A stretch of 64,000 nucleotides of DNA from an uncultured Clostridia bacterium (GTDB taxonomy: Bacteria; Bacillota; Clostridia; Christensenellales; UBA1242), in contig CALEWH010000022.1 in assembly GCA_937925475.1 (NCBI GenBank), positions 5,376 to 69,375 on the forward strand, in the 5' to 3' direction. The first letter of the stretch is position 1, and every line of letters begins with the position of its first letter. A program made the translations under genes and the position numbers. Positions 6,267-51,383 of the stretch are shown piece after piece. The notes below the pieces were generated by a model that was not told where the DNA came from, ran no database searches, and worked only from the letters and a program-made list of their open reading frames with translations.

Positions 6267-9200
6267 TTATTCTTCCCCGTTGTCGTCTGAGTCGTCAAAG
6301 TCATCAAACAACGACTCTTCGTCAAATATTCCGTCAAAGTCTTCATTGGACTCATAGTCTTGCTCAACATTTTTGTCGTCATCAAATTCAAGTGCCAAGT
6401 CATCGACTTTTTCTCTGCCCTTAGTTACATTGGCAAATGTTTCGACCATATCATTGTTAAGGTCGCTTAGATTAAACTCTTGGTTGTTTTTAGTAAGTAG
6501 TCTTACATCAAGTCCAAGACCTTGCAATTCTTTAATAAGTACCTTAAAGGACTCAGGAATTGAAGGTTGTGGTAGTTGAGTTCCTTCAACAATGGCTTTG
6601 TAAGTCGCAAGTCTTCCTTCGACATCATCGGATTTGACTGTCATCATCTCTTGCAACAACTTACTTGCACCATACGCTTCAAGTGCCCAAACTTCCATTT
6701 CACCAAATCTTTGACCACCAAACATTGCTTTACCACCAAGTGGTTGTTGGGTGACATATGCATAAGGACCTGTGCTACGAGCGTGCATTTTATCGTTGAC
6801 CATGTGTTCTAGTTTGATATAGTACATATATCCGACAGTAACAGGGTTTTCAAAAGGCTCGCCTGTACGACCATCATATAGTTGGATTTTACCATTCTCT
6901 GGGAATCCGTTTTGTTTTAACAATTCTTGAATATCGTTTTCTTTTACACCATCAAATACTGGGGTTGCTATTCGGATACCAAGCGCCTTAGCAACAAGTC
7001 CAAGGTGAACTTCAAGCACTTGTCCGACGTTCATACGGCTAGGAATACCAAGTGGATTTAGAACGATATCAATAGGTTGGCCATTAGCCATAAATGGCAT
7101 ATCGGCTTCTGGCAAAATGCGCGAAACAATACCTTTGTTTCCGTGACGACCTGCCATTTTGTCACCGACGCTAATTTTACGCTTTTGAGCGATAGTAACT
7201 TTAACCATTTGGTTTACGCCAGTTTCAAGTTCGTCTTTATTCTTTCTAGAAAATACTTGAACATCTACTACTACACCACTAATTCCGTGTGGAACTCTAA
7301 GTGATGTGTCTTTTACATCTCTTGCTTTCTCACCAAAAATGGCTCTAAGAAGGCGTTCTTCAGGAGTAGGCTCGGTCTCGCCCTTAGGAGTAACTTTACC
7401 TACCAAGATGTCGCCTGGCTTAACTTCTGCACCGATACGAATAATACCATTTGCATCCAAGTTTTTAAGAACATCTTCGCCAAGATTTGGGATATCACGA
7501 GTAAACTCTTCGTCACCAAGTTTTGTGCTACGACATTTTACTTCTTCTTCTTTAAGCGAAATAGATGTGTATACATCTTCTTTTACAAGTCTTTCACTAA
7601 TAAGTACGGCGTCCTCGTAGTTGTAACCTTCCCAGTTCATAAATGCGATTAGCATATTTTTACCAAGAGCAAGTTCGCCACCAGATGTGCTATATCCGTC
7701 CGCTAGGGTCTCGCCTTTCTTAACTTTTTGTCCGGCTTTAACGATAGTTTTTTGGTTTACACAGCTATCTTGGTTTGTCTTTTTAAACTTAATAAGTTCG
7801 TACTCATCTACTGTTCCATCGTCAGTAACAACTTCGATTCTGTCAGCATCAGCAAATTTTACTGTACCAGCATTTTTAGCGCATATGATTGCACCGTTGT
7901 CTTTTGCTATACGATACTCAACCCCTGTACCTACAAGGCTTGGTTCGGTTGTGATTAGAGGCACTGCTTGGCGTTGCATGTTTGCACCCATTAGCGCACG
8001 CGCTGTATCGTCGTTTTCTAGGAATGGGATAAGTGATGTAGGAACAGAAATAAGTTGACCTGGGGCTACATCCATATAGTCTACCATATCCTTAGATACT
8101 TCAACGATTGTGTCCATATAACGACAAGTGATACGGTCGTTTTTAAAACTTCCGTCGGCATTTAGTGGCTCAGTGGCTTGTGCAATATAACAATTTTCGT
8201 CTTCGTCAGCCATCAAGTATACTACATCAGTAGTAACAATGCCTTTTTCTTTATTGATTACACGATATGCGGTTTCGATAAATCCATATTCGTCGATTCG
8301 AGCATAACCCGAAAGCGAGTTGATAAGACCGATGTTGCCACCTTCTGGTGTTTCGATAACGCAGATACGGCCATAGTGACTGTGGTGAATATCTCTGACC
8401 TCGTCAGTTGCGCGGTCTTTCTTGATTCCGCCTGGACCTACCGCACTCAAACGACGCTTTTGAGCAAGCGACGAAAGCGGGTTCATTTCGTCCATAAGTT
8501 GTGATAGTTGGTGACCTGCCAAAAAGTCCTTAAATGCGCGGTTTACTGGGCGTGCATTAACTACTTGCGCAGGTGTAATTTCGTTTAGATCATGTGATTG
8601 AAGTGTTTCTTTGACAGCATTTGAAAGTTTTGAAAGTCCGCTTCTAAATGCGTCTTGCAACAACTCACCTGCTCCTTTGATACGACGATTGCATAGGTGG
8701 TCGACATTGTCTACATATCCGATGCCAGCGTTCAAGTCCAAGAAATATGATACTGTCGCCAAAATATCATCAATAGTAAGAGTGCTTCCTACTAGATTGT
8801 CAACATTGTTTTTGATTGCTTCAATGCGTTCTTCTTTTGTCTTGTACTCTTTAAGGATTTCAGCAAGAACTGGATAGTATACACTGTGATTGATGCCAAG
8901 TTCTTTTTCGTTGCATTTGATAACTTCGCTAAGCACTACACGATTGTTTCCGTACATTTTGTGTTTTTTGCCGTTTACATCGTATACCCAAACCTCATTG
9001 ATTCCGTTTGATTGGATTTCAAGAGCTTTTTCTTTGCTAATGACCTCGCCTTCTTTTACAAGAACGGTCTTTTTATTAATTATATCTTCGGCAGCAGTAA
9101 GACCAACTAGACGATTGTAAAATCCTAGTTTTTTGTCAATCTTGTATCTACCTACATCGCCCAAATTGTAGTATTGGGTCGAGAAAAATTGAGAGAATAT

Positions 9201-9977
9201 AAATTGTTTTGTTGCCTCAGCATTAGGAATTTCGCTTGGACGAGTCTTACGGCTAAGTTCCATCAAAGCGTCGTGTTGGGTCTCAAAACCATCGTGGTCA
9301 AGAGTGGCTTTCATAATTTCGTTGTCGCCAAGAGCAGACAAAATTTGCTCGCGTGTAAGTCCAAAACACTTTAAGAAGATACCAAGAGAAATCTTGCCAC
9401 CTTTATCTAGTGCAACACGCAAAAAGTTTGGGTCCTTTTCTTTTTGTTCGATTTCAAGCCAGCTACCACGTTTTGGGCTTAGAGTCGACGAGAAAAGTTC
9501 GCGACCGGTTTTGTCGATTGTTTTACTATAATATACACTTGGGCTCTTTACGATTTGAGATACTACTACACGCTCAATTCCGTTAAAGATAAATGTACCC
9601 TCTTCTGTCATGTATGGTACATCACCCAAAAATACTTCACTTTCTATTACTTCGCCAGTTTCCTTGATTACAAGTCTAACCTTACATTTTAATGCAATAG
9701 TGTAGTTTGCACCTTTGCGTTTGGTTTCGGCTTTGCTAAGCTTTGGGCGTTCTTCCAAAGTGTAGTCAAGAAAATGTACTTCGGCTTTACCAGCATAATC
9801 TGTGATTGGTGAAAACTCCGCTAGTGCTTCGCCTATGCCCTCCTTCAAAAACTTATAGTACGAATCTTTTTGTACTTCAAGCATATATGGAATTTCGAGT
9901 ACTTCTTTAGTCTTGCTAAAATTGTATCTTACATTGTTTCCATATTTTACTTTCTTAACGGTTTGCATATCAAGCAT
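6267..9977 (-). CDS. rpoB: DNA-directed RNA polymerase subunit beta
   Basis: 1236-aa ORF containing a Rif-cluster-like block ([28 protein letters not shown]), [14 protein letters not shown] and an acidic C-terminal tail. AAGGAG lies 9 nt upstream of the ATG at 9977. Confidence 0.98.
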
Positions 9978-10147
9978 TTCGTCTTTCTCCTTAAAATAAT
10001 TTTACCTGTAAGCCTAAGAGTGCCAAAAAATCCCCTTACCACCCAATTTTTCGTTATTTTGGGTTGTAACAGAGATTTTTTCATTAAATTTTATAAATTA
10101 AAATATAAACATTTAGACACACTTCTAAATAATACTATGCGACTACG

Positions 10148-10176
10148 AGTATACCATACTAAAAACTACCTGTCAA
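10148..10176 (-). promoter_or_regulatory. Near-consensus sigma-A promoter of rpoBC
   Basis: Minus strand: TTGACA (10176-10171), 17-nt spacer, TGg-TATACT extended -10 (10153-10148). This predicts a leader of about 165 nt. Confidence 0.65.
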
Positions 10177-10293
10177 CACATAATTGGCCCCAACTCAAAT
10201 ATTTTTCAAATAAGTTGTTGTATCTTCCCACCCCTATCCCGCTTCTATATTCCATCTCACAAACATTATTTACGATCAACATCTCATTTTACC

Positions 10294-10460
10294 AACATAG
10301 TTTACAACCTTATTTTACTAATGTAGTATCAAGATTATTTGACTAATATAGTTTATAATAATTAAACCATTATATTTTATAATTTCATTAGAAAAATATA
10401 GTTTACAATTTTATTATGGGAATATAGTTTACAATTTCCTTAAAAGAATATGATTGTAAA
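10294..10460. repeat. Array of a 15-mer (plus strand AATATAGTTTACAAT) plus one inverted 8-mer
   Basis: Copies sit at 10421-10435 and 10395-10409 (identical, 17-mer identity), 10345-10359 (1 mismatch) and 10294-10308 (2 mismatches). Start-to-start spacing is 26, 50 and 51 bp. ATTGTAAA at 10453-10460 is the exact reverse complement of TTTACAAT at 10428-10435, with a 17-nt spacer. Confidence 0.75.
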
Positions 10461-10488
10461 AAAAGAAAGGCTCCCGCCTTTCTTTTTT
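10457..10488 (-). terminator. Rho-independent terminator of the 7,176-codon gene
   Basis: Perfect 10-bp stem AAAGAAAGGC/GCCTTTCTTT (10462-10471 / 10476-10485) with a 4-nt loop and a U-run on the minus strand. It begins 6 nt after the TAA at 10496-10494. Confidence 0.85.
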
Positions 10489-10493
10489 AGAAC

Positions 10494-32024: not shown

Positions 32025-32098
32025 CTTTCACCTTATCTTATGTTTTGTGTATTTGACTTTTTTAGTCACGAAAACCAAGATTATATAAAATATAATTT

Positions 32099-32128
32099 AT
32101 TATATAAATAAAGCCCCCGCTCTGTCAA
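32099..32128 (-). promoter_or_regulatory. sigma-A-type promoter of the 7,176-codon gene
   Basis: Minus strand: TTGACA (32128-32123), 18-nt spacer, TATAAT (32104-32099). The -35 is embedded in TGTATTTGTTTGAC, the same 14-mer found at the promoter of the other giant gene. Confidence 0.6.
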
Positions 32129-32160
32129 ACAAATACAAGTATATATTATATAAATATATA

Positions 32161-32470
32161 TCGCACACGCATATCACACGCACACTTGCACACTCGCACC
32201 TGCTCCCCTACGCGCGCACCTATCCACACCCACATTCACTCCCTACTTTCACTACAATACGACCACTCGCATTCCCCATTTTCACCTTATTTTCTTACTC
32301 AAAAAATCTCATCACAATCCACTCCCCCAAACACACTAGACACACCACCAAAGTCACAATATCTAATTAAAAAAAATAAATCAAACACATCTTAAAAAAG
32401 CATCTCTCGCGCCCGCTATCAAACTCATCACAACTTAACCCGACCCCTGTCACAAAAACCAAAAATAAGT
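32161..32470. other. Non-coding spacer with extreme strand asymmetry (plus strand C/A-rich and almost G-free)
   Basis: My hand count over 310 nt gives about 115 C against about 21 G on the plus strand. There are CACAC/CACTC/CCCC runs (cgcacacgcatatcacacgcacac..., cactccc, cattcccc, cactccccc). The spacer lies between the terminator of the upstream giant gene and the promoter of the downstream one. Confidence 0.8.
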
Positions 32471-32484
32471 TATTATTTCATAAC

Positions 32485-32514
32485 AAAAAAGACCCGCATT
32501 CCGCGAATCTTTTT
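32485..32514 (-). terminator. Rho-independent terminator of the 6,249-codon gene (minus-strand specific)
   Basis: Minus-strand RNA forms GAUUCGC-GGAAU-GCGGGUC (7 bp, two of them G:U) followed by U6. On the plus strand the same positions are C:A mismatches. It lies about 20 nt after the TGA at 32536-32534. Confidence 0.7.
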
Positions 32515-32533: not shown

Positions 32534-35500
32534 TCATTTATACAAATTACGCTCATTTGTCGATTTAGTTGTATACCAACTTAATATAGTAGAAAAGGTT
32601 GACCTAAATGAATTATTTGCTTGGTCTTTTGTATTTAATGCTTGATAGAAGTTCTTAATTATTCCACAACTCGAATCTCTATATAATACAAAACTATATA
32701 TATCCCCACTAAATATACCCTTATTTATCTCGTATACATCGCCAAGATCAAATGCATTACTATTATAGTTTTCATTCTTCTCACTCCAAAAGAAGCAATC
32801 CTTACTATAGTTTAAATTAGTAGAAACATAGATATCTAAATGATTTTTTATATTATGAATTTCAGAATCCTTCCAATAATGCTTAATAAAGTCTTCACCG
32901 TCGATTTCCCCAAATTGTTGACCTACTAAGTCATAAGAATTTGCATAGATATTATACTCTATTACCATAATTCCACTATTTTCCCAACTACCATACTCTA
33001 TACTCGAATAAAATCTTTGAGCATATCTATTTATCAAATATTTTTGATTTTTGTAATTAGATGATAAGCCATAAATTTGATCTATTGTTTTTCCAACCAT
33101 TTTATCTGTTGAATTATACAATCCGCCAAATACAAATCCTGAAAGAGATTTGAAATTTTGAAGTTTCAACATATCTGCAGTACGCCACCAAATGTCATTA
33201 TTTAAATCATAACTCTTTAAATTACTATAAAACAATGAATCATCGTGTGCCCAACCTTTATGTACTTGGAATGGATTTCCACTTTTCCACAATTCCATCA
33301 AAGATTTTTTTACTGTGGTTTGAGTTCGATTGTTAAATGATTCATCAGTTTTAGAATAACCATCATAATCAGTAGAATAAGGACCATACCACATACCTTT
33401 CCAATTTTTAATGTCTTCATTTAGATATCCGACCGAATATCCTATTGGAGAGTCAAAATTTTTATTATATCCAAAGAAATTAGTTTGCACATCGTTTAGT
33501 TTTAGCGAACCAAATCTCAATCCATCAACCACCCAACTATATTTATACTTTATTTTATTTGTCCATTCATCAGATGTGTAGACACCAGCTTCAATAGTAT
33601 TACCCTTTGGATCAGTTATATCTGAATTTAGATGATATTTATATGCTACTTCACTATTAATTACAACATTATTAAATGCTATATGATTACTGCTGTAAGC
33701 ATAACCCGCTACACCGCCTGCATAGTAAGAACTTTTTACATTTTTGATGTTATTAGTTACATTTTCTATGTACAACTCGATTCCTAAATCTTTACCATAT
33801 TCTACATATCCTAGACTGCCAATTAATCCACCAGCAGATGACTTGAAGTTTGAACTACCTTCACATTCTACAACATCTCCAGCAAGCGAACAGTTATAAA
33901 TCTCAACTTTACCTCCACTAATATGGCCGATTATACCACCAGCATATTTTGTTCCGCTTATTTTTTGTCCATTTTCTATATTTACTTCACAATATTTAAT
34001 AACCGCATCACCTGAAACGATACCAACTACACCACCAGCAGTTTCACCTGTTATACTTTTTCCATTGTATGTGAATGTACTGTTATCTGTAAAACCTATA
34101 TTACCCTTTTTTAGTGTACCTACAATACCACCTGTAATACCTTCCGAAACAAGCTCTCCAAGGTTTTGACAAAATTTTAATGTATAAGGATTTTTAGTAT
34201 CATCAATAACACCTACTATACCACCCAACGAAATATAATTCTTGATTTCATCTTCAGTTTTATCAGTTTTATCAGTATTTATTAGAATTGAAATGTCTGT
34301 GACATTAATACAACTTTCTATTGATGAGTTAATGGATTTGCCTATTATACCACCAACATATTTGGTACCACCACCCGACTCACCTTTAATTTCGTATATT
34401 ATACCAGACTCATAGGTAGTTTTACCTGAAGTAGTAACACTATAACCAGAGATTACACTTTGGAAACTACTATTTTCAGCAAGTCCAACCAGCCCCATAT
34501 TTCCATTTGAAATTTTAGCAGTTATCGAACTGTTGTCTATGATACTAGCACCACCCATTACTTTACAATTATCCATCACTCCAGCAATAAGCCCTATGTT
34601 TGTTCCTGTTACCACTAGGCTTGATGATGAAATAGTGTAATATTCAATGGTGTAATTTGTAAGCCTACCTGCAAACAAACCTACATTTGCAGAAGCATCA
34701 TTATTTTCTATTTCGCAGTTTTCAAAACTAATACCACTCAACACACGATTAGTATTAGGTGTGGAAGTTATGTTACCCAACAATATTGAGTTCTTTGTTG
34801 TTTTAAAACTTCTAATAGTTAACGCATATATATTTGGATTTAAGCTAAACAAGATATTTGAATTACTATCTTTACCACCAATAATTGCATAGTCATTGCC
34901 ATAGAATGTACCTGACAAGTTTGCCGAAGTGTACATATCAGCTTTATAACCCATATACAAATCATTTAGCAAGACATAGTTATTTCTATCACTCACACTG
35001 CCATCATTAGCAATTTCATTGAAATCTCTGATATTAAAGACTGGATATATATTTGACTCATCTGCAAAATATGTTATTGTTCCATCTTCCGACCTAGAAA
35101 TCATTGTCGAAACAACTATGCCACCATTGATATAGTATCTATGGAAATTATAGTTTTTGCCAGTATTTATTACAAAAACATAATATGCAGTTTCTTCTCC
35201 ATTTGCATTTACTTCTTTCTTTATATTTGCAGTTTCAAAACTCGAATTTTGTGTTTTATTATCTTCAAAATACATCGAAAGTGGATCGGAGTATGTATTA
35301 GTGATCTGTCCATTGCCTTCAAATGCAACATTTCGATTTGAAATGCTTTTACTATACAGAGTACCTTCAAATGCACAGAAATCTATTTTACCTGCGTTAC
35401 TGTACGCAATACCACCAGAATTGATTTTAAGCTTATTATCAATATTGTTATAATAAGCCTTGCCTGTATCATCAAATCTAAGACCTGTTATCATTGACGA

Positions 35501-38500
35501 ACAATACGATGTACTAATGACATTATTGTTTTCGTGTACTAGACCGCCAAGAGTCACAACATTTGATGTGTTGTGTAGATTTGTATACACAATCACCGCT
35601 CCCGAGCGATAAACATAACCATTGTTTGTACCTACTAGACCGCCTATATTACCACTGCTTATATTGTTTGTGCCTTTTACAACAACATTGTTTAGCACAC
35701 CATAGTTTGTGCTTATTACATTTTCAAATCCAAGCAAATTGTAGTCAAACACGATGTTTCCAATCACACCTTTATTTACAATGTCATATCTTTGACCACT
35801 ATGAGAAAGTGTGATTCCAGCTGTCGATTTTCCAGCAAGAACGGCATTACGACAGATAGTGATAGCACTTTCTATTTTAGCATTTTCTGTAATTATGTTA
35901 TAGCCACTAATGGTTAAGATTTCCGCATCTGGATCTTTTGTCACTTTTGTCAACTCTCTGGCATTGTATTTAGTGCCTTCGCCATATATTTTTGTGAAGT
36001 AGTAGGAATTTGCTATCAAATAGTCTGTTTCTGTATTTATTTTTTCGCCATTTTGTAAGCCAATAAACGCATCTTTCAAACCTTCATAAATGTCATAGAA
36101 GTATTTACCCGAAGCATCTTGTTTTTCATAGTAGAAATCAAAATAATCTTCAATAATGTAAAGAGTACTTCCACTTAATGAAATACTGTTAAGGTTTTTA
36201 TTTGCCCCATTTTCACTTATGACATTGATAAATGGATTTACATACATCGCTTTATAGCTATTTGAATCATACTTGTTGGCATTGTTTGCATTTACATCGT
36301 CTTCAACCATCTTATATGTACTTTTTTCAACTTCATATACACTGGCTAGTACGCGACAATTTTCGAATGTAAACATTTCACTATTTTCTTCAATCGATCC
36401 AATATATCCGCCTATCATACCACCAAGATAGTATTTGCCAGAATTGTGTGTAAATTTGACATCACCATACGAGATATTGTCTTTTAGTGTAACTTCCCCA
36501 GTCTCCACGCCTATTAAAGCGCCTTCATAAACGGTTTTTCCGCCATCTACTATTACATCACCTTGCATATACGAGTTGTTTAGACCTGTTTCAGTTCGAC
36601 CTATTAGTCCGCCGACCTTTACAGTATCTTGCAACTTATTCGCGCTAGATTTTGCCACAACAACTTTAACATCTGCTGTATTAATAAGGTTTTCATTATT
36701 TTTTGTAGTACTCCCTTGTGCACCTATAATACCACCGACTATAACATTGTCGTCTTTATCACCATTTACATCTTTATTGATTGTTACATTTATGCCTACA
36801 CGATTGATAAGATATGTTCCATTTGTATAGTACGACTTCACATAGCCCATCAATCCGCCGATATTGTAAGTCTTTTGACTTCCACTTGTATTTGTAATAA
36901 TTACATTAAATGATTTGTTAGAAGACAAGTCTTCATAGTTGCCATCATTATTCATACTTCCACAGAATTGGCTATTTTGTACGCCATTTCCTTGGTAAAG
37001 ATATCCGACTATTCCACCAATCGAAACTGCCGTAGCACTTTGGGTTGTAGCGGAATTATCATTACCAACATTAATGTTTACATCAAATAAGTGATTGTAA
37101 TTGGAAGCGGTTATGGAGCTATTAGTCATTTTGCCGACCATACCACCGACATTACTGCCACCTGCCAAAGTCCCTATCGCTGTCAATTTGACAACACTAG
37201 ATACGCTTTCTATTCCCGCATCACTTACTTCGCCCACAATTGTACCTATGTTTGTGATTTTGCCAAGGCTCTCATCAAATTTATATTGGTTTGATTTGTC
37301 TTTACCAAAATTACCTGTGGTTATTTCTAATGTAAACTCTTCAGCATTTGAAGTAATATTAAGCCCTGAGATATTGCCACCTGTCATTTGACCAGCAACA
37401 AATCCGATTGATGTAGCTGTATTGTTGATTTTAATTGTGTTTCCACTGCCTTCAAACTCAATCTTTATTTCACAATTTTCAAGTGTAGAGTTTGTCATCT
37501 TGCCAAACAAGAAGCCCATATAAGCGGTATTATCATATAACGAACCATTATTTTTGATCAAATATGTCCACATATAAAAGTTGACATTTTTAAACACAAA
37601 CTTACAATTTTCAAATGTTGTGCGTTCGATATATGAAGCAAAGAAGCCAAATGTATCTGTTGTGCTTACGCTAGCCTTATTGCCTGAAAGAGTACTCATA
37701 TCAAACTCAAATATAACATTGCTAATGGTTGCACCTTCTAACGATTCAAATAATTGATTAGTGAATGATGAGATATATACGGTTCGTGCTTCATCTAAAC
37801 TTGTGTCACCAGACAATACACCCCTAAATCTCTCTGGGAATGTATAATTATTTTCACCACCTTGAATTGCGTTACCACTCTCCTTCAAACTAAGTGTATA
37901 ACTTTTACCTTTTGTGTTTGAATTTAGTACTTCAATAAGTTGATTATGTGTTGTAATTACTGTCACTTGACCCGCTTTGCCAGACTCATATTCGAGCAAA
38001 CCTGTTTCTTCATTGAAATACCACGATTGCGATGGAGTGTTGGCTTGTGCACTATTAACTTCGGTGATCAAGTCACTTCCATTTGTATTAACTTTACCTA
38101 TACAGCCCAAAAGGTTTTCTTTCGAAATGTCATAGCCAAAGCCGACTGCACTTCCAAATATGTTGATATATTCTTCATACTCGACGCCATTTTGAACACT
38201 TACATAGTAATAACCAGTCATTTTTGAAATAGGATATTGAGTTCCAAACAATGTGCTGTATCTCACAACATTGTTGTTTAGGACCTTTTTCTCAATTTCT
38301 GGTGGATCTGCTGTATTATCAGCTTCTTGATATTCGCTATAATATTTGCCATCCAATTCTTTTACAGTATTAGTTACTTCTGCATTATTTGGAGTAAGTC
38401 CACTAAAACTGCTTACCATATTACCTTCGGACATCTCACCAGTACGAGTGGTTGTGCCATAAACCGACGAATATACATTGTAGAATTGTTCGCCATAGTA

Positions 38501-41500
38501 AGTAAAGTAGTATGTTTTCTTGCTATCAGCGTTTACATCAGTACTTATGTTGTAACATACTGGACTAACACTTGTGTTGTTTGTAGATACAACATATTTT
38601 TCGGTATCTTTATTATATGTACTAGTAAACAATCTTACACTTGCCATATTGTTTTCTATAACTGCAATGTTGCTACCTACACTGCTATGAACAAACATAT
38701 TTTTAAGAGATGCCGAGTTGGCACCTGTGCTTATAGTATTTCCAGTGACAGTGAATAATGTTTTTTCTGTGGCACTGTCTACATATGTTCCAGCATTCAA
38801 GACTGCTTTTCCTAATACAGAACCCATATATACAAAACGCGAGTTTTGATTAGAGATACTATTTGTGCGTTTTGTGATAGTAGGAATATTATCAAGGCTA
38901 TACTCAGTCATTTGGTTTCCAAGTTCGGGCATACGCACATCATAATCAGTCACATTGACGCCATAGATGGCAGTAAGGTTGGATCTCAAAGTATCCACTA
39001 CTTCGCTTCCCCAAACATTTTCTGCGATTGCATTGTTTAGATACATATCAAATGAGTTGTATCTATAAAAACCGACTAGACCGCCCACAATTTCTTTTGC
39101 GCGAACATTGCCTGTTGCAAAACTATATGCGACACCGATTTTACCTTCGGCATAACCCATAAGTCCGCCAGCAATTCTTGCGCCAAGATTGTAGACATTG
39201 ACTTTTGCAAAACTGTCAAGAATAATGACATTTTTACCACGACCAGCGATACCGCCAATCGCAACAGATACGGTCACACCGCTATCTGTATTTAGGAATA
39301 GGTCGTTTTTAGAAACCTTATCCGAAGTAATTTGTGCAATATCAAGGTCAATTTGGTCTTGATAATCGCTATCAAGGTGTCGTACATTTACTCTTTCCAA
39401 AATAGCATTTTCGACTTGACCAGCAATTGCACCGCCAAACGCTCTACCATAAATGCGTTGATATGTGTCGACATTGTTTGAGCCTTGCATCAACATAAAG
39501 TAGCTATTTCTAAGGTGAGTGTTGTTTCCGATATAACCAAATAGTCCACCGGCCATATCACCCGAAATCTCGACATTGTCTCTTACAATAATGTCGTGAA
39601 CACTGACAGCATTGTTTCTGTACTCTGTCAACTTGTATGTTGACATATTATTTACATTTGTGACTGCGCTTGTTGTGTCGCTACCAACTTGGATATTGTT
39701 TGCAAGTATAACACCTGCTACACCACCAGCATATGAGATTTGGTTAAGATTTTTAATATTTCCATTTTCATCAAAACTAATTAGATTGTAGGCTCTCTTA
39801 TTGCCCATAATGTCGCCAAACTCTTCGTAATAAGCGCCTGTGTCTTCATAACTGTCGCTAAAATCGGAAAGTTTGTTGTTTGTCGAAGTGACTCTGACAT
39901 TTTTAATAGTGATGTCATTCATAATCACGCCATTGCCACTGATAAGACCTGCTAGACCGCCTACTAGGTTGTAACCACTAATTGTATTGATAGCACTAGT
40001 AGTCGCGCTCTTCTTTCCTTCAATAGTAATGCCCATCAATATTCCTTTATACACACTACCTGCAAGTAGTCCAACTTTGTTTGCACGAGAGTCAGACAAC
40101 TCATTGTAGTTGAAGTTGACATTGTATATTGTAGGTGAAATAATTTCAATGTTTGTTTTACCTTTAAAGATACCTTCTTGAGCATTAGTCATACCTATTT
40201 GCTTAAACAAACCAAAGTCTTCAAGGTTGTTTCCCGATGTATTTGTGTTGTTTAGGGTGATGTCGCTAATTGTCATTCCATTACCGATTATATACCCTGC
40301 AAACACTACTTTTGACAATGGGATTTGATCGTCTTCGTTGTTGCATTTATATGTATTGTTTAGACTAATCTTTGCCAATGAGATATTGTTTACAAGTTTG
40401 ATATATCTTGGATTGTAAGTTTGTGGGCTTGTATCATCTCGTCCACCAAATAAATAGAAGTAATCATTTTGACTATTTCCAAACCTATTAGAGTTTTCAA
40501 CAATGTATTTTGCAAAATGCGATGGTTGGGAAATAATAATTGGATTTTGTTTTGTTCCTATATTTGGACCAGTATATCTATAATCGTATTTAAGTTTGTC
40601 ACCTTCGCTTGCACTTTCGGTGCTTTTGTTTGTAAGCGTCCTAACTGACTCTATATTGCAGTTTACTGTATTTAATAGAGTCGGATATCTATTATTGTTT
40701 AAAATCCATATTCCGTCAAATGCTGAGCTACTGCTTGCAAATGTAAAGCCTTCAAAGCTTCCACTATTGGCAAACGAAATACCTACTTTGATATCAGACG
40801 GAGACGCTTCTGAAATAATTGCTTTTGCTGGGTCGATACTCTTCAAAACATCTTGTGTTGCATTTGTAGATGTGATGCCCATCTCTTCTTCTACTATCAA
40901 ATAGTAAGCGTTTTGAAGCGTCGAACCTGCTTCGTAGTTTTTAACAAATCGGCCGTGAGCACGCGAGTTTATATTTGAAGTAACGCTTGTGGTGTATGCG
41001 TTTTTGATAACACCAGTAGACTTGTTTTCAAATGCAAAGCCCGCACTGTATACTGTTTGGACAATTATGTCGACCATTGAGTATGCATTTTCTATTGTGC
41101 CTTGGTTGTCGTATACAAAACCACCTACATTTCCTTTTGACGAAATGTGTGTTTTTGTAGCACGAAGATTTACTATATCATCCCCATATGCCGAATACTC
41201 GCTACCCGAAACAAAGCACGAGTATATGGTTGCGTTATTGGAGTTTTGTCCTACAAAACCCGCAGTAGTCGAACCCGATTGGATGTTTGTGGTGTTTTCA
41301 ACCGAAACACCCATAACATACGAATTGGATATAATGCCTGTGTTTGATGCGACAAAACCAGATATCTTATTTCCACCTACAAGAGTAAATGGATAAACTT
41401 TTGTATTCTCTGATTTGTTTTCGTTGGACTCAGTTTTAGTCTTTTTAATGTACGAATATCCATCTTTTTTGTAATCAACCGCATTTAGTCCAACAAACGA

Positions 41501-44500
41501 GTCAGATATTGCACCGCTATTTTGCGCTACAAAACCCGCAATAGTGGCCGAACACATCTCACCATTAGAATAACCTTGTTTTGAGTAGATGTTTAGATAG
41601 TTGTTATTTGTCGATTTGTCTGGGGCTGTGAAATTAACTACTCTTACATTTGAAATTACGCCTTCGTTTTGTGCAGCGACAACACCAAATGTAACTTCTC
41701 TTATGTCCTCACCTGCTATTGTTCCATCTATGGTGAACTTAGTTTTTGCGTTTGCTGATGATGCGTCATCAGATACAAGTTTACTTATGTCGACATTAAG
41801 ATTTTGGATAACTGTGTATTGACCTATTTTTCTAAATAGACCTGCTTCGATTGCGTTGTTTTCCGCACCGCTGAAATCCCACGAATTTATTGTGATTGTA
41901 AAGCCGTTTGCATTAAACGACGAAACATAAATGTCGCGTGGAGCCCATTTTTCAAGTACAAGGTCGCATAGCAATATGTAGTTTCCAAAGTTAAGTTCGG
42001 TCGGATCAATGTCTGGATTGTTGGAAATTTGTTCGTTGACACTGTCTTCGGTCATAAACGAACACATATTAACAAAGTCGCTTACATTTCTAATTGGATT
42101 TGGATGATCGACTGACGAATTGTCAGTGATTTGCAAAGTGAAATTAGCAATTTTGTAGTGTTTTGGGTCGTTACTATTATCAATAACAGGCACACCATTA
42201 ACCACATTGTAATCAAACTTAAATTGCATATTGTTGTTGCTTATCTTCAATGCATTGATGCCATAGTATGGCATTTTGCCAGTACTTGACAAGAAGAATT
42301 GATAGTTTGCTAGATTTATGCCATCAACAGTAGGATAGAAAGCATCTTTATTAAGTAAGGTCGATGTTTCATTTTTAGACTTCTTATCCCCATCAAGTGT
42401 GTACCAACCATTGTGATAAGTGTTATTTTGATTTGCGCCAGTGCCTTTGATATCTTCGGCAGAACTTTGACCATTGTTGTATTTGACAAGTTTAATTACG
42501 CTCTTAAACAATGCTTTATCGAAGTCTGTTGCATCAATTTCACTCAACTTGTCCACTTCTTTTGCTATATCAGAATATATCAATTCGTCTATACTTATAT
42601 TCTTTTCTCTTAGTTTTTCAAGAACACCGTTGTAGATAGATTGAGCTTGGGTGTTTAGTTCGACCGAAGCACTAAGCGAAGTGTAATTGCTAAACTTGAT
42701 AGAAATAAGATTTGGCGATGTGCCATTTACATAAACATTTTCAATATCAAATAGTCTTGTTTCAAGAGTGAATGTTCCTGTTGTGGTTACTCTTGAAGTA
42801 TTTACAATCCTATAACCAGACACAACAAACTTGTATGTTGTTAGTGGGGCATCCTTAGGGACAAAAATGTAAAGTTCTTGCGATAAATATGACGCATTGA
42901 ATGTATAATCTATTCGAGTATATCTGTCGCTTATCTTATAGCATAGATATGGAGTGTTTGTGTTTGTAAGAGTTGCTTGTTTTCCGGCAAAATCGTACAA
43001 CTTTCCAACAGTATCTACATCCCAAGTAAGCGTATCTTCGACATTGGCTGTACTTATCAAAACACGCTTGTACTCACCTACTGGATCGTAGTCTTCATTT
43101 TGACCGCTTAGATTTGTAAAGTAGATATGTGGCATAACATCAACTTCGATGCTCATATTTGTACTCAACAACACGCTGTCATTTTTGCCATATGCGATTA
43201 TTTGCAAATCCACCATACTGCCTTCGGTGATCGAACTATCAAAGTCGATAAAGACATAGTAGAAGTTTGCATAATCGTGGCTAGTGTCGCCAGAATAAAT
43301 CAAGCTCCAAAGTTTGATGCCATTTTCTATGCGAGTGTTTGCCGAAGTAACATTGACAAATTCAAGTGGATTGCTAATTCCATTTATATTGGCTTGTCTT
43401 AGGGTGATTTTGTCATTGTTGGATTTAATAGCAATATAACTCAAATTGTTGTAGTCTTTCATAACTTTTAAGCGGATAAGTCCAGTTTTGCCTGGTTCCA
43501 TCTTGCTTACATACTCGGCATTTGTGTCGATAGTATATACATTTCTATCATTTTCTTTTGCTTTCAAATTGAAGAACGAAGTCACCACATTGGATACTGT
43601 GTTTGCTTCGATAGTAAGAGCAAACTTTGCCACTTGGTCAGCGTACTCTTCCATTACTACCCCGTTATTAGACCATGACTTAGGGATAAATGTAAAGTTG
43701 TATTTTAGTGCTTCTTCAAGTGGATTTGTGTATCCATTGTTTTTGTATTCGTCGTAGTATTTTTCAATATTCATTTCCAAATACAATGTATATTTTATTC
43801 TATACAAATTCTTTGTGCCTTGGATAGCGACTGCTTCGCTGTCTTTTACAACAAACACATTTATCATATCAAATAGGTTTTGACTACTTGTATTATTTGC
43901 CGATACAACATTGCCATTTCTATCTAAAATCACAATGTCCATTTCTTCGTCTTTATTTGACGAAACAATTTCGACGCTAACACTTGTATTTCCTTCTGGT
44001 TTGATAGTCGAAGCATTGTTTGTGCCGACACTAATGCTTTTTGCAAGGTCAAATACTTCGATGTCAATTATTTCACTCATATAGTCAAGCATAAATATGC
44101 CTGCACTATACTTGATGTAAGGCACAAGTTTTATTTGCAATTTTCCGGCTTTTTGTCCCATCAAAACAATAGGATTGGACATATCAAAGTCGTATTCTTC
44201 ACCTATACTATCTTCATTTAGTAGTGTGCCATTATAACTTACTTCGGCAGTGTTGTTGGAAGACTCAACAAGACTCAATTTGTATCCGCCAACATTTGCG
44301 TCAAATACAAACGATTGAGTTCCTTCCACCAAAGTATTGTTGAAACCATATGAGTAGGTTTTGGCTTTGTTTACATATGTGGTCATCGAGTTTATGCTCT
44401 CGACACCGCTTAGTCCGTTTACGATATATATTGTGATTTCAAAAGTGTTGTTTCCGTCATATTTGTTTGTAAATGTAAGTTTTACAAGGCCTGTACCATT

Positions 44501-47500
44501 CACAACAAGACTTGTGTGTCCATCAAACTTTTCAACACTTAATATGTTTGCATTGTTTGACTTTATAATGTACTCGTGCAAGTCGTTTAGTTTGAAAATA
44601 TCACTCTCAAACACATCAGCAAAACTTAGCACGATTGGTGCTTGACCACCGATATATTTTGCATCCAACTCGGCTTTTTCTGCGTCACTGCCTGCGATAA
44701 CATAAGTGTTTTGTCCGTCATACTTGCCATTTGGCTTGTTGTAGAACAACACAACTTCGCTATCACTAAGTTTGACATAACCTTGTTTCAATTCGTTTAG
44801 GTCCGAACTTCCATTGTAGTTGAAATCGGTCACTTTTACATTTAGTTTTGAAACCGAGTCGTACAAAACATCAAGTGATTGGGCAGTTTCGCCTTCCGCC
44901 AATCTTCTGATTAGCACTGGCAAACCATTGTTGACATTTTCGTCGACAAACCATAGTGCGTTTTTATTATCCAAAACATACTTGCCGTCTTCATTGACTT
45001 TTGCAATGATGTTTCCTTCATTATCCATCACATAGTTATTAGCAGTACTTCCTACTTGACCATTTGTATACGCAAAATTATACAGCATAGCAAGTTGTTT
45101 TTTAGTCAAAACTACTGTGACATATTCGCTTCCGTTTTCTTTAATGGTCTTGCTTTCCACACCATTAAACATAACAGTATTGTTTTCACTAAGTGTGATA
45201 GTGACATTTGTGAAATATGTATTCTCACCTATTACTAGGTCACACACATTTCCTTCAATTGCAAATTCGATTTTGTTGCTACCGACTTCATTTGTAAATT
45301 CTATGCTATCAAAAATCGAACCATATTTATCTTCATTTGTACTGTCAATGCATAGATAGTAAGTGTTGCCGTCAGTTCCAGTCAACTTGTCATATGTAGT
45401 TGTAGTTGTGCTATTTTCAGTGTAGTAAAGTGGTATATAATTTTCATTTATGATTGCAAAATATCCACTAAACTCATTTTCATAAGCACTATCAACAAAG
45501 AATGTGTTTCCATTGTAATACAAAGTAACAGTGTTTGTATCATTGATATTCCATTTTAGAGTAAATGTAACTTTGGATTCGTCAGTAACATAGTCGCTAA
45601 TTGTGACATTTTCAAGGATAGCGATTTCTTGTTCGCCTTCCTTTATATAAACAACTGGTCGAATATTATTTACTTCAAACTTTGTGGCAAATAGGTTTTC
45701 CATAGAAATGTCTTTTGCATCAGTAATGTCGATAGCTCCTACTTCTGTTTCGTCCTTGTCGCATTTTTCCAACAATATTTTCGAATAATCTTCGGCAGTT
45801 TGTCCGCTTTGGATTGAATTATCAAGTTTGGATATAGCACTATATAGCAAATTTTCGGCTTTAATTGTACTTATATTCTCAGGGACATTTATGGCATAAG
45901 CGTTTAAGAAGAAACGATCATTTCCACCTAGGTCTGTTTGGACATTTCCGTCAAAGCCAAGGTCTTTAAACATATCCACTTTGTCGTCTGGAATATAGTT
46001 GTTTGCGCCCGCAGGGATTGTGCCATTTTTAAACAAGTTGTATCTTGTGTGTTTTCCAGTGCCATAATCAAACACATTTTTATGTACAGTATACACAAAT
46101 AGTTTGTCTTCTTCAGTAAATACAGCAAAAGTAACATCTATCTTAGACACAACCATACTCTTTGGTGTGCGGATGTTTAGTACATTTGAAGTGTTTTCCC
46201 AAGTACTAAATGTGCTATTAGAAACAGCATAGAATTGATTTATTGAGACATTTGTGCCAAAGTCAAAGGCATAATTTGTGTAAGAAACACTTTCAGTCTT
46301 TGTAGCGACATATCTAATATATTCGCCGACATTTTTGTCTTCAGTCAAAGTATTTTCGTCTTCCTTAAACTCCACGCTGACAGCGTCCACCGAGCCACTA
46401 GATTGAGTAGGCACGATGTCATTTCCAAGTATAACCTTTGGAACATCATCACGCGAGTAAATATTTCCGATAAAGTAAGCATTGTCGATGAGGATATTAT
46501 TGTTGCTATTTCCTACAAAACCGCCAATGTACTCTTTTGTAGTAGTGGCATAAGACTTAATGTCAGCCATTACATAACTGCTTTTTATAGCGATATCAGC
46601 ATTTGTACTAGCGACTAGTCCACCAACAATCGATGTGTTTATGCTACTTGCTTGTCTAACAATGATATTTCCACAATATTTGTTACTATCATAAGTAGCG
46701 TCGACTTGGGTGCCACCAAATGCGCGAATGTACGAATTGACAAACTCGACTTTGTCTTGTGCGTTTGCTACAAAACCAGCGACATTGTCATAACCCATAA
46801 TCGAGTTTTTATAATTGTCGTTGTACAAAAACTCAACGACTACATGTTCAAATGTTACTTTTTGGCTTTCACCAACCACACCGGCTACATTTTTGTATCC
46901 ACTGATTGATGGTGTAACCCTTACATCTTTTGCTGTAAATGTGCCAGTAGTTTCGCCCGCTACTCCACCCAAAGTTGCGTTGGAGATGTTTGCGTCATCT
47001 CCACCACTGATTGCTTGGATTTTGCCCGATACTTTAATGCCAGTGACAGTGCTATTTTCAGCAGTACCAAATACTCCACCTATTATGTGTTTGCCTTGTG
47101 TCTTATCTGCTGTAAGTCCATCAAATGTTGTGGCAATATTTGACGCAACATCGTCTGCAAACATATTAATCGAGTCCTTAGCACTCAAACTAACTTTGTT
47201 TGCCTTTGCGACGATTCCGCCCACAACTATTTGGTTGGCTGATTTTTCTTCGGTTATTTTTGCGTCATACGATACATTGATATTTCCTGACACAAATAGA
47301 TTGTCAAGTTTGACATTGTTTGCGATACCCGCAAGTCCACCAAGACTTAGCGAATATTGTTCTTTGGTCGCAATTTTAATATTGTAATTTATATTTTTTA
47401 GAGTAAGGTCGTGTATGCTATACTCAGAGTCTTCTTTGTGTTCGACTTTTGCAAACAAGCCACCGATATAGTCACCTGTTTTTGTGATTGCATAATTTGC

Positions 47501-50500
47501 TGTAAGTCCAGCAATGTATTTGCCATTTCCGTCAAAGTCACCTGCAAAAACATTTGCATTGTTTAGCAAATAATCTGCAAAATTGTTGTTTGTAACATTG
47601 ATGTTGTTTTGAAGACGATAACAATATTCGTTTTCACCACCGATGTTTCGATTCCACATTTTGATAAGGTCGGAAATAGAGCGGATTTGGAATGGATTTT
47701 CCTTTGTGCCATCGCCGATGCTTATCACAACATCTTTGGTGACACTGTATTTTGTGGCACTTATTATGCTGTCTTTTGCAATTATTTCGATGATATAATC
47801 ACCCACAACATTTTGCAAAATCTCAACTTTAACTTGATTTTCTACGATCTCAATTTTAGCGACATTAGTTATGCCTTTATTGTTTCCAGTGTAAGTCCAG
47901 CTAATTTGACTTACTGCAATTGTGTTTGCATCAATGATGTTGTATTCGTAGTCGACTTCATCTGAGTACACACCATCTTCAAGCGATTTGTAAAGTTTTT
48001 TATCGACTGTGTTGAAATAATATGTTATGTTGTCGATTGTGATTGTGTTTTGGCTTGACAAAGTGTAGTTTTGAGAACTTACGATATATAAGTTTTGCTC
48101 ATCACCTTTGACATAACCACTACCTTTTTTTATAGCAGTGTACACCTTAAATATAACGCCTTTATTGTAGGCATTTGTAGGCAAAACTGAGTAAGTAAAT
48201 GTTTGGCTAGATAGATTTGCACCAGTTTCTTTTTCAAAATACAATCCGTTTACACCTACCGATGTATCAATCGACTTGACCATAACAGGATTGATTACGC
48301 GGATATTGGTTGAAACATACTTGCCCCTTCCAAATTGAGTTGCGCTTCCTTCCAAAACAAAGTCACGATAGTTGTTGTTTTCGCTAGCACCAAAAGCAAG
48401 TCTTATCGACTCAGTTTTTCTAGTGTACTCAGACACATTTGAGTCATACATTGCCTCAAATAATTGGAGCAATGTCATTTCTTCTTCAACTTCTTTGTCC
48501 CCTACTATCTTTGTGATTGTAAACTTCACAAAGATTTCGGCTGAAAAACCATTTTCCTTTTCCCCAACTATCTTCGACAAGATATCAGACATATATATGT
48601 CGATGTAGTAGTCGGATCCATCTTTTCTAAGACGCTCTTTATTATTCCAATCTAGTACTTTGGCTTTGCTCAAATCAGAACCAAGACCGTTTTCAACATT
48701 TCTAAATGCATTTAGATTTACAGAGTGGCTGACTTGGTTGGCATTTTTAAGTTCGATATCGTCAAACTCAAAATTTCCTTCAACTGCATTCATTGGATTT
48801 TTTATCCACTCATACAAATACTTATTTTTGCCCGCTTCTTTGTCTTCATATCCTAGAGAGTTGGACAAATATGTTTCGTTAAGTTGAGATCTAAACTCTA
48901 TCGATTTGATAGCGTCAAACACCCAAACATTGATAGTGTGAGTATATGTGACTTGTTGAGGTTCTCCACTGTTTTCGTCAGTCTTATATCCACTTAATGT
49001 AAATGTAAGGGTTATTGGTTTTTTGTCCGCAGGTGCACTATATGTGTAAAGAACACCTTGCAATTTGTTGTCGACAAGTTCGACATTCCACAACAAACTT
49101 TGGCTTGGATTGATCACTGCATTGATATCGACATTTGGCAAAACATATTTCAATTGTCCATTGTCTTCCAAAATGCTATACACATCAAGTCTAACCTTAC
49201 TATTGCTTTGTAGTATTAGGTCAGTGATTGTAGTGTAAGTAAACTCATTGTCATTTATGTTGCAGTTTATAGTTTTGGTGGTGGCTTCATATTCTTCGCC
49301 TTCGCCAGTCATTTTGCCAACCACAAACACAGCATCGCTTGTCTTGTCCACATCTACATATAGTGTATCGTCACCTTCATACAAAACTGGCAAGTACACT
49401 ACTATTTTTGCATAATTTGATTGTTTGCCGTTGTTTGCGATAATCGACAAAGTCACTTCGCCTGTACGGAAAGATGTGTTGGACTTTATATATATTTTGT
49501 TTGCGACATATTTGATGTCAATTAGGTCAAGGTTTCGTCCCACCACCTTTTCGACTGTTTCGCTCGCCTTGTACTCTTCTGGGAAAGAATATAGTTCGAT
49601 ATATTCGTCCTTAGTGATTTCTAGTCCTATCTCATCAGTAGGCAAGTTTATTTCTTTTATGCCCGCTTTAAATTGCAAGTATATCTTTTTGCTGATTGTT
49701 ACTTCGCCATAAGCAGATTGTTGATCTTCGGTCGCATTGCTAGGTGCAAGCGAGTAAGTAAGCGAAACTGTGATGTAAGGCATATTGCTTGGGTCAATGC
49801 CCGCAATATCGTCTGCCGAATATGCGTGTTTTAGATACATAGTCGACGCATTTGCTAATATGTTGGATGACGAAACAAGTTTGCCATCGACCATAATTTG
49901 CAAGCCTTTTACTCCAAGACCTTCTTTAAGTCCCGATTTTTCATAGTCATAAGATATAGTGTATCTTAGGTTTGGCAAAGTGGATTTGTTTTCTTGAACT
50001 TTTATAGGTGTGCCATTTTCGTTTATTCCGCCAGTGATCGACTTAAAATAAGTATCGTACACTGTGTAAATTTGATTGTCATCGGCCTTGTCATTGATAA
50101 GCAAGTTTTCGGCCTTTGGCAAGTCGTACACATAGAAAGTAAATGTCACATATTTTGTAAACAATCCGTCAAATTTGTGCAAGTCGTTTTCTGGGTTGTC
50201 GTTTGCGTCACCGATATATTCGATTTTGAAGGTTACATCAGTGCCTCTTGTGCGTTTTTTTGCAGTTATGCGATAACTAAACACATTTTGATATTCTTGG
50301 TCATCATATTTTTCTATCGCAATAGGTTTGTCCGCAGTAAACGAATAGTCACCTTCTATCGATATGCGATATTTGTTTGTTTGAGCGTTTTCATCTCCAA
50401 GACCTATGCGCACTACGCGTTTGACATCGTCAAGATTGATTGTTCCGCCACTAACATTGATTTCAGGGTTTGCCAAAAGCACTTCATATTTGTTTGAGTT

Positions 50501-51283: not shown

Positions 51284-51383
51284 TTTGTTTCCCCATTTTT
51301 CTTTATCTTAGTTTTGCTAAAATTGAGTTTAATATAAGCAAAATTGCAAACTTTAAGATACATTAATATATTTTAATATATTA

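Follow-up and report, generated by a model that had tools for sequence, protein, structure and literature searches.

Why should the spacer between two giant, co-oriented genes of an uncultured Clostridia bacterium carry far more cytosine than guanine on one of its strands, and could that asymmetry serve the genes on either side? The question arises from a 64-kb stretch of DNA (hereafter the window, meaning the whole stretch that was analysed), in which the two genes reach 19-22 kb (18.7 kb for giant gene 2). Both gene products have predicted lipoprotein-type signal peptides, their N-terminal regions are distant relatives of each other, and a GLUG motif lies close to the C-terminus of giant gene 1. 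A sequence-only reading had placed a C-rich tract exactly between the terminator of giant gene 2 and the promoter of giant gene 1, a setting that our coordinates confirm (Table 1), and had suggested three roles for it: a Rho-loading (rut) site in a + strand transcript, a G-rich minus strand prone to forming R-loops or G-quadruplexes, or a C-rich small RNA.

Table 1. Features of the locus and their coordinates in the window.
Feature	Coordinates	Strand	Remarks
Giant gene 1	10494-32024	minus	ORF of 7176 aa; its promoter adjoins the tract
Giant gene 2	32534-51283	minus	ORF of 6249 aa; its 3' end is the part that the tract would shield
Giant gene 1 promoter, TTGACA-18-TATAAT	32128..32099	minus	12/12 consensus positions; kept in L001, L003 and L004
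AT-rich zone directly upstream of the -35 hexamer	32129-32160		UP-element-like
C-rich, G-poor, A-rich tract	32161-32470	+	As + strand RNA, a candidate Rho-loading (rut-like) region
Promoter-proximal CGCACAC/CACTCGCA low-complexity part	32162-32219		Repeats and alternating runs
Tract core	32217-32349	+	C56 G3 in 133 nt; skew -0.90
21-nt stretch CCCCATTTTCACCTTATTTTC	32274-32294	+	Complementary to the gene 1 ribosome-binding site and start codon; window-specific; meaning uncertain
Intrinsic terminator of giant gene 2	32486-32514	minus	Hairpin 32491-32509 with A/T runs
Second, weaker tract of the same polarity behind the gene 1 terminator	10101-10400	+	Rho-target score 2.08, the second peak

An extreme C-rich, G-poor tract between two giant genes

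The tract is the strongest C-rich/G-poor stretch of the 64 kb. Its + strand consists of 109 A, 115 C, 20 G and 66 T (58% pyrimidine), which amounts to a C:G ratio of 5.8 over 310 nt and of 19 in the core, and to a GC skew of -0.704, in agreement with the hand count of about 115 C against about 21 G and a skew near -0.7 in the sequence-only reading. The G+C content, which that reading had placed above the flanks, is 43.5%, compared to 36.3% in the window overall and 21-34% in its remaining intergenic spacers. Given the background of the strand, finding 115 C among 135 G+C has a binomial probability of 2.6e-13. The minimum of the 310-nt sliding skew across the window is -0.73, at position 32181 (mean -0.117, SD 0.117), and in a search for the maximal-scoring C-rich/G-poor segment, the tract scored 21.1, versus 8.9 for the next best segment and a maximum of 13.5 after block shuffling. 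The skew peaks sharply, with values of -0.745 and -0.694 inside the tract and of -0.09 to -0.42 in the flanks, and this peak is accompanied by an excess of A over T on the + strand. CACAC occurs seven times in the tract and CACTC four times, runs of three to six C are numerous, and the core contains the window's longest stretch without G (32270-32338, 69 nt).

Beyond the terminator, the last ~1.5 kb of giant gene 2 (window positions 32534-34100) is AT-rich (28-35% G+C) and likewise G-poor on the + strand, with a skew down to -0.51 and three of the window's four longest G-free runs. A weaker form of the antisense C>G bias thus reaches into the 3' coding end of giant gene 2.

Mutation bias, slippage and other possible origins

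Mutation bias is an unlikely cause of the tract. At four-fold degenerate sites of the giant genes, C exceeds G on the sense strand (skews of -0.14 and -0.18), the reverse of what the tract shows. Elsewhere in the window, intergenic spacers have skews between +0.28 and -0.35, and only the equivalent one downstream of gene 1 (9978-10493, -0.35) leans appreciably in the same direction as the tract, far more weakly, while the G+C content of the tract exceeds that of every other spacer and that of the coding sequence. From these data, DNA decaying neutrally in this genome should become AT-rich and weakly skewed. The region upstream of giant gene 2, which faces a real divergent gene, has no tract (skew -0.07).

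A different neutral account holds that the tract is a functionless, low-complexity spacer produced by replication slippage of CAC/CACTC-type units, with a polarity that passively echoes the genome-wide strand asymmetry. In the window, the tract is indeed modestly repetitive (4- to 6-mer excess with z of 3-4, an 8-nt period repeat at 32175-32199, and a 23-nt imperfect direct repeat whose copies lie 33 nt apart), as would be expected from slippage. The related loci bear on this account from both sides and are described in the next section.

Several other origins and contents were considered and set aside. As to a hypermutated copy of some other window sequence, a purine/pyrimidine-collapsed search of both strands yielded a null-level score. 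A transition-tolerant Smith-Waterman alignment of the tract with the 5' regions of the giant genes was marginal (z ~3 for gene 2 and ~1.5 for gene 1), and an ungapped comparison with the gene 1 promoter and leader gave 37% identity (z ~2), so that the copy searches leave only a ~20-nt similarity to the gene 1 ribosome-binding site and start codon. Comparison of the spacer with plasmid and phage collections by blastn returned no match. A 69-codon ORF on the + strand (32186-32395) begins with TTG without a Shine-Dalgarno sequence and is expected by chance, since only TAA stops are possible there; the short minus-strand ORFs of the tract are not conserved in L001 and L003 as judged by eye. Finally, a CsrA-type enrichment of GGA was rejected, with ~7 GGA on the sense strand by a rough hand count versus ~9 expected from the composition.

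Polarity and composition recur in related loci without shared sequence

Four relatives of the locus were compared: L001 and L002 from ENA metagenomes, L003 from a metagenome-assembled genome (MAG) labelled as an uncultured Christensenella species, and L004 from a Clostridia MAG, the latter two obtained through an alignment-based genome scan. The giant-gene family is rare. A genome scan with a single protein found no relatives, scans of metagenomes with a protein pattern and with the conserved leader were both negative, and protein searches returned only P0001 and P0002 for an N-terminal profile and no match for a C-terminal profile. The N-terminal regions of the relatives are 33-56% identical to giant gene 1, and the tandem arrangement is conserved, as the upstream co-oriented gene ends in a gene 2-related C-terminal domain in L001, L003, and L004.

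Three of the four relatives carry the same polarity and composition at the equivalent position, and L004 is without a tract. On its sense strand, the spacer has a GC skew of +0.70 in the window, +0.77 in L001, +0.73 in L003, +0.41 in L002 (where the spacer is cut by the contig end), and +0.11 in L004, and across the loci the tract measures ~310, ~200, ~140, and ~100 nt, or is missing. When the five spacers were aligned with MAFFT, the terminator, promoter, and leader aligned and the tract did not, and the tracts share no k-mers beyond what their composition predicts. The terminator is kept across loci alongside the AT-rich zone, in which the motif TTATATAATAT (sense orientation; + strand copy from 32143) is present in five of five loci. 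That polarity and composition are kept without sequence argues for a constraint on the composition of one strand; at the same time, absence in one relative and weakness in another indicate that the tract is dispensable. The sequence-only reading would have counted it against its proposals if such tracts were common in the intergenic regions of this genome or not conserved in relatives with the same gene pair; the tract proved unique in the window, and its composition recurs.

For the slippage account, the spread in length from 0 to 310 nt, the lack of conserved sequence, and the one relative without a tract are all in line with a functionless spacer. The same polarity and composition nevertheless occur in three lineages whose neighbouring proteins are only ~50% identical, the tracts of L001 and L003 show no significant repetitiveness, four-fold sites are biased oppositely, and neutral DNA at 36% G+C should drift toward the AT-rich, unskewed state of the other spacers. 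On balance, we regard a functionless slippage product as rather unlikely.

The loci also differ in the terminator of giant gene 2. In the window, it is strong in the direction of the gene (-16.5 kcal/mol, U6) and weak in the + direction, where its stem is interrupted; the + direction hairpin is better in the relatives, with poorer reverse U-tracts in L001 and L003. The most symmetric terminator among the loci, that of L004, has a perfectly palindromic stem flanked by U6 on each side and is predicted from its sequence to be a good bidirectional terminator. Because L004 combines a missing tract with this symmetric terminator, its pattern would fit Rho-dependent and intrinsic blocks to + direction transcription that are interchangeable, within a comparison of four loci only. 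Positions 2760-2800 of L004 hold an unrelated spacer sequence with a ~13-bp imperfect hairpin (TCTCAGAATGACA…TGTCATCTTGAGA) that has no Rfam match.

The + strand RNA is predicted to be unfolded, untranslated and a Rho target

Read as RNA, the + strand of the tract is nearly unfolded, with a minimum free energy (MFE) of -15.8 kcal/mol per 329 nt. Of 6388 windows of 130 nt taken from both strands, the eight with the least structure (-0.5 to -2.0 kcal/mol, versus a mean of -22.3 with an SD of 5.7) are all within the tract. The minus-strand RNA, by comparison, folds in an ordinary manner (-78 kcal/mol, z -2.2). The + strand contains zero GG dinucleotides, a single start codon (the TTG at 32186), and no conserved ORF, and from these signals its RNA is predicted to remain untranslated. 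YC dimers occur at 19 per 100 nt, compared to 10.3 for the strand overall.

These traits can be placed beside what has been reported for Rho in Bacillus subtilis. Rut peaks obtained by H-SELEX with B. subtilis Rho (BsRho) are ~100 nt long, unstructured (on average -9.7 ± 8 kcal/mol), G-poor with C above G, and antisense to genes in ~80% of cases, although according to the authors sequence descriptors cannot reliably tell Rut from non-Rut (PMC12350095). In a 2026 reporter screen in the same species, Rho-terminated fragments often held more than 150 nt with C well above G, and fragments high in "excess C" were nearly all Rho-terminated; the same work describes purine-rich sense and pyrimidine-rich antisense strands as a mark of species that have Rho and show runaway transcription (PMC13323073).

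We computed a Rho-target score with the published coefficients of that screen, which were trained on B. subtilis in vivo (PMC13323073 supplement), using 300-nt windows and a boundary of 0. The + strand of the tract attained a log10 score of 2.73, the highest of 5098 windows under this B. subtilis-trained model. Since the tract is T-poor (at most 27% T), the score derives solely from excess C, which reaches 3.04 of a possible 4, with a skew of up to 0.86 in magnitude over 150 nt. Within the window, the two highest-scoring predicted Rho targets are the spacers behind the terminators of giant genes 2 and 1. In the relatives, the antisense scores of the spacer were 2.86 (L001), 2.14 (L003), and 1.22 (L002), in each case the top peak of the locus, and 0.03 in L004, which was not the top peak there. 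More broadly, 56% of windows on the + strand and 0.9% on the minus strand lie above the boundary, and purines make up 55.6% of the sense strand of genes. This is the kind of pattern that PMC13323073 links to species with Rho, and it is the one, indirect, sign that the present organism may encode the factor. No rho gene occurs within the 64-kb window, and searching the literature for Christensenella in combination with Rho gave no result.

The length over which C exceeds G, the lack of stable structure, the predicted absence of translation, and a Rho-target score above the boundary together give the tract the features of a candidate rut site. Among the roles proposed by the sequence-only reading, a rut-like + strand site is accordingly named here as the best fit to an RNA that is unfolded and apparently untranslated, has the top Rho-target score, and keeps its composition in relatives. 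The textbook case is lambda tR1, where rutA and rutB form a C-rich, G-poor, unstructured, and untranslated RNA upstream of the release zone. The tract would share these RNA traits while being about three times longer and without sequence similarity to rutA/rutB. While the tract would act on divergent or antisense RNA, classical rut sites work on sense transcripts, either within a transcription unit or at its end. With the Bacillota Rut and antisense sites (PMC12350095; PMC13323073), it has in common an excess of C over G across more than 150 nt, low G, lack of structure, antisense orientation, and a Rho-target score well past the published boundary. As a predicted Rho target it differs from them in being more extreme, T-poor, and A-rich rather than pyrimidine-rich, in occupying a dedicated non-coding spacer instead of mirroring a purine-rich coding strand, and, relative to the B. 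subtilis sites, in coming from another organism, a Christensenella-like Clostridia.

The opposite strand lends itself to a reading in which the bias makes the sense RNA Rho-proof: being G-rich and C-poor, it would let gene 2 read-through co-transcribe gene 1. The sense-direction Rho-target scores of the spacer are low in all loci (-0.3 to -0.45), and in Bacillota transcripts are protected by purine-rich, G-rich sense strands (PMC13323073). Ordinary coding sequence, however, scores equally low, so that such an extreme bias would be unneeded, and a strong terminator and an independent perfect promoter are kept in all loci, so that read-through is apparently not required. Of all readings considered, we hold this one to be the least probable.

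Two repeat arrays elsewhere in the window coincide with Rho-target peaks. Between the gene 1 terminator and the next gene (6267-9977, minus), ~5 imperfect direct repeats of 25-26 nt around ATATAGTTTACAAT span positions 10281-10454 and overlap the second-highest peak; by its sequence this array could be a regulator-binding array. In the spacer 2333-2646, an array with an 8-nt period (GGATAGTC / AGGTAGTC on the + strand) extends over 2435-2563. Its sense (minus) strand is C-rich, G-poor, and unstructured (130-nt MFE of -2.5), and forms the sole minus-strand peak among the Rho-target peaks of at least 0.9, with a score of 1.13; judging from these properties, it may be an attenuator that works in the sense direction, or else a group of binding sites.

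The promoter side of the tract

Transcription of the tract in the + direction would need a source. A promoter-like site on the + strand, CTGTCA-16-TATTAT at 32122-32149, matches 9 of 12 consensus positions; it is weak and confined to the window, and a consensus scan for + strand promoters into the tract found no conserved one, with none in L001 or L003. Pseudo-symmetric bidirectional bacterial promoters yield divergent transcripts (PMC12825309). In relation to those promoters, the gene 1 promoter region is similarly AT-rich and near-palindromic (TATAAT, TTATATAATAT), might likewise fire both ways, with a divergent side that is non-coding, and differs in its imperfect + strand consensus site, which has no counterpart in the relatives.

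The close spacing of tract and promoter raises the alternative of a role at the level of DNA, as an array of regulator sites or as an element that absorbs supercoils, for instance through Z-DNA-prone CG/CA runs. The tract does span roughly -40 to -360 relative to a perfect promoter and contains the imperfect direct repeat with its 33-nt spacing. The window has nine GC-rich runs of alternating purines and pyrimidines that reach 10 nt or more, and three of them fall in the promoter-proximal low-complexity part. These runs measure just 13, 11, and 11 nt, however, and are absent from L001; the relatives share no motif beyond the composition expectation, and a function of double-stranded DNA alone would not need a strand asymmetry of 0.7. 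A DNA-level role is, in our estimate, improbable.

Other features of the promoter region and the leaders are recorded here in their own right. Between the -35 and -10 hexamers, the 18-nt spacer (32105-32122) contains a run of four to five G (GGGGG) that is kept in four loci (the window, L001, L003, and L004) and is unusual among promoter spacers of an AT-rich genome. Exactly bracketing the promoter are two 17-nt AT-rich inverted repeats (32081-32097 and 32137-32153, 88% complementary), which are probably a chance match in AT-rich DNA; their spacing is too short for a typical invertible promoter, and they add to the symmetry of the region. The 5' leader of giant gene 1 (window positions 32025-32098, minus) reads …GTGACTAAAAAAGTCAAATA.ACAAAACATAAGATAAGGTGAAA.ATGGG and is near-identical in the window, L001 (~1004-1077), and L003 and L004 (~2925-3000), whereas the proteins are only ~50% identical. 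A small hairpin within the leader, TGACT-A5/6-AGTCA, is kept only in part in L003. The degree of conservation suggests a regulatory or translation-enhancing leader. Just upstream of the start of giant gene 2 (51283-51310, minus) stands AAGATAAAGAAAAATGGGGAAACAAAATG, which looks like an out-of-frame relic of a gene 1-type ribosome-binding site and ATGGG start, and whose GGGGA is now at Shine-Dalgarno distance from the present start codon.

The G-rich strand and a possible regulatory RNA

The strand complementary to the C-rich one might itself be the active element. In this alternative, the G-rich minus (sense) strand would form an R-loop or G-quadruplex barrier, or would be a hotspot for recombination between the two giant paralogues. 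G-rich RNA on a C-rich template favours R-loops, and read-through RNA from gene 2 would be just such a transcript, given a sense strand with 37% G and 6% C. Furthermore, the tract lies upstream of a surface-protein gene with an adjacent paralogue, a setting that recalls pilE of Neisseria gonorrhoeae, where a G-quadruplex with a cis sRNA has a strand-specific effect; Cahoon and Seifert, in 2009 and 2013, reportedly described this G-quadruplex upstream of pilE. The tract likewise places a G-rich strand upstream of a surface-protein gene with a paralogous copy, but it has no canonical G-quadruplex motif. G4Hunter maxima across the loci are 1.2-1.7 (1.20 in the window), yet neither the tract nor L001-L004 contains four runs of at least three G with loops of up to 12 nt, a single two-tetrad candidate (32219-32243) occurs in the window, and the G residues are dispersed (CC/GG observed/expected of 0.71). 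The conserved strong terminator just upstream would moreover limit sense transcription through the tract. The dispersed G residues and the missing canonical four-run G3 motif weaken the G-quadruplex part of the earlier proposal in particular, and an active G-rich strand seems quite improbable overall.

A C-rich regulatory RNA, transcribed divergently from gene 1 and pairing with G-rich ribosome-binding sites, notably that of gene 1, has one main point in its favour: the predicted pairing of the 21-nt stretch is -24.4 kcal/mol, versus -17.1 ± 2.0 in dinucleotide shuffles, with 0 of 200 as good. The weak + strand promoter-like site ending at 32149 and the many C runs could also serve such an RNA. 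The complementarity is, however, not significant in L001 (P ~0.1) and absent in L002, L003, and L004, and the terminator that would end the RNA is weak in the + direction in the window. An almost structureless RNA is also unlike known stable sRNAs. Rfam searches at permissive thresholds with the spacers of the window, L001, L003, and L004 gave chance-level matches only, and neither sequence nor structure is conserved. In comparison with the C-rich Firmicutes sRNAs of the RsaE/RoxS type (PMC2790875), the tract similarly has C-rich motifs (UCCC there) able to pair with Shine-Dalgarno sequences, among them the one 21-nt match to the gene 1 ribosome-binding site; it is three times longer, essentially unfolded, and devoid of conserved sequence, structure, promoter, or terminator. 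The conserved sequence and structure with C-rich loop seeds that mark the RsaE/RoxS type were not found in the tract. The low weight that the sequence-only reading had given to a C-rich sRNA can therefore stand, in the absence of an Rfam family and of conserved sequence, structure, or + strand promoter, and we see this role as having the same very small probability as an active G-rich strand.

Discussion

We tentatively propose, as the likeliest of the readings though one that falls somewhat short of probable, that the tract is a Rho-loading pad that would halt divergent or antisense transcripts before they reach the 3' end of gene 2. The sequence of events would be as follows. A polymerase would set out the wrong way from the promoter region of gene 1, which is strong, AT-rich, and near-symmetric, or would arrive with an antisense transcript begun inside giant gene 1. 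Transcription of the + strand of the tract would then produce a long C-rich, G-poor, unfolded, and untranslatable RNA, on which Rho could load and free the polymerase within or just past the tract. Release would thus precede entry of the polymerase into the 3' end of the 18.7-kb gene 2, and the benefit would consist in avoiding head-on collisions with polymerases that are finishing gene 2, as well as antisense RNA. The points that argue for this proposal are all properties of the sequence: the composition of the tract, which has no equal in the window, an RNA that barely folds and lacks translation signals, the modelled Rho-target score, and a conservation that concerns composition only. What the proposal infers beyond them is + strand transcription, the presence of Rho in this organism, its action at the tract, and the shielding of gene 2 as the selected benefit.

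A more far-reaching version of the Rho-loading proposal is that the tract represents an evolved, position-specific "Rho pad", an insulator behind giant-gene terminators that would be interchangeable with a bidirectional terminator. Such a pad would be defined by composition, with no conserved sequence, and would guard very costly transcripts from colliding polymerases. This general form is more speculative, and we consider it unlikely, if worth stating. The suppression of C-rich antisense RNA by Rho and the purine difference between sense and antisense strands are already established; the tract adds a non-coding case, unusually extreme and constant in its position, from a lineage of uncultured Clostridia.

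If the tract is inert, it is a mere compositional curiosity. In practical terms, it is a candidate part for an orientation-specific Rho-dependent terminator. If the proposal is true, the locus would provide a natural case in which selection on base composition alone has built a strand-specific, non-coding barrier to transcription, and the purine/pyrimidine strand code of Rho-containing Bacillota would extend to dedicated intergenic insulators. It would also hint at how bacteria shield very long transcription units from antisense interference.
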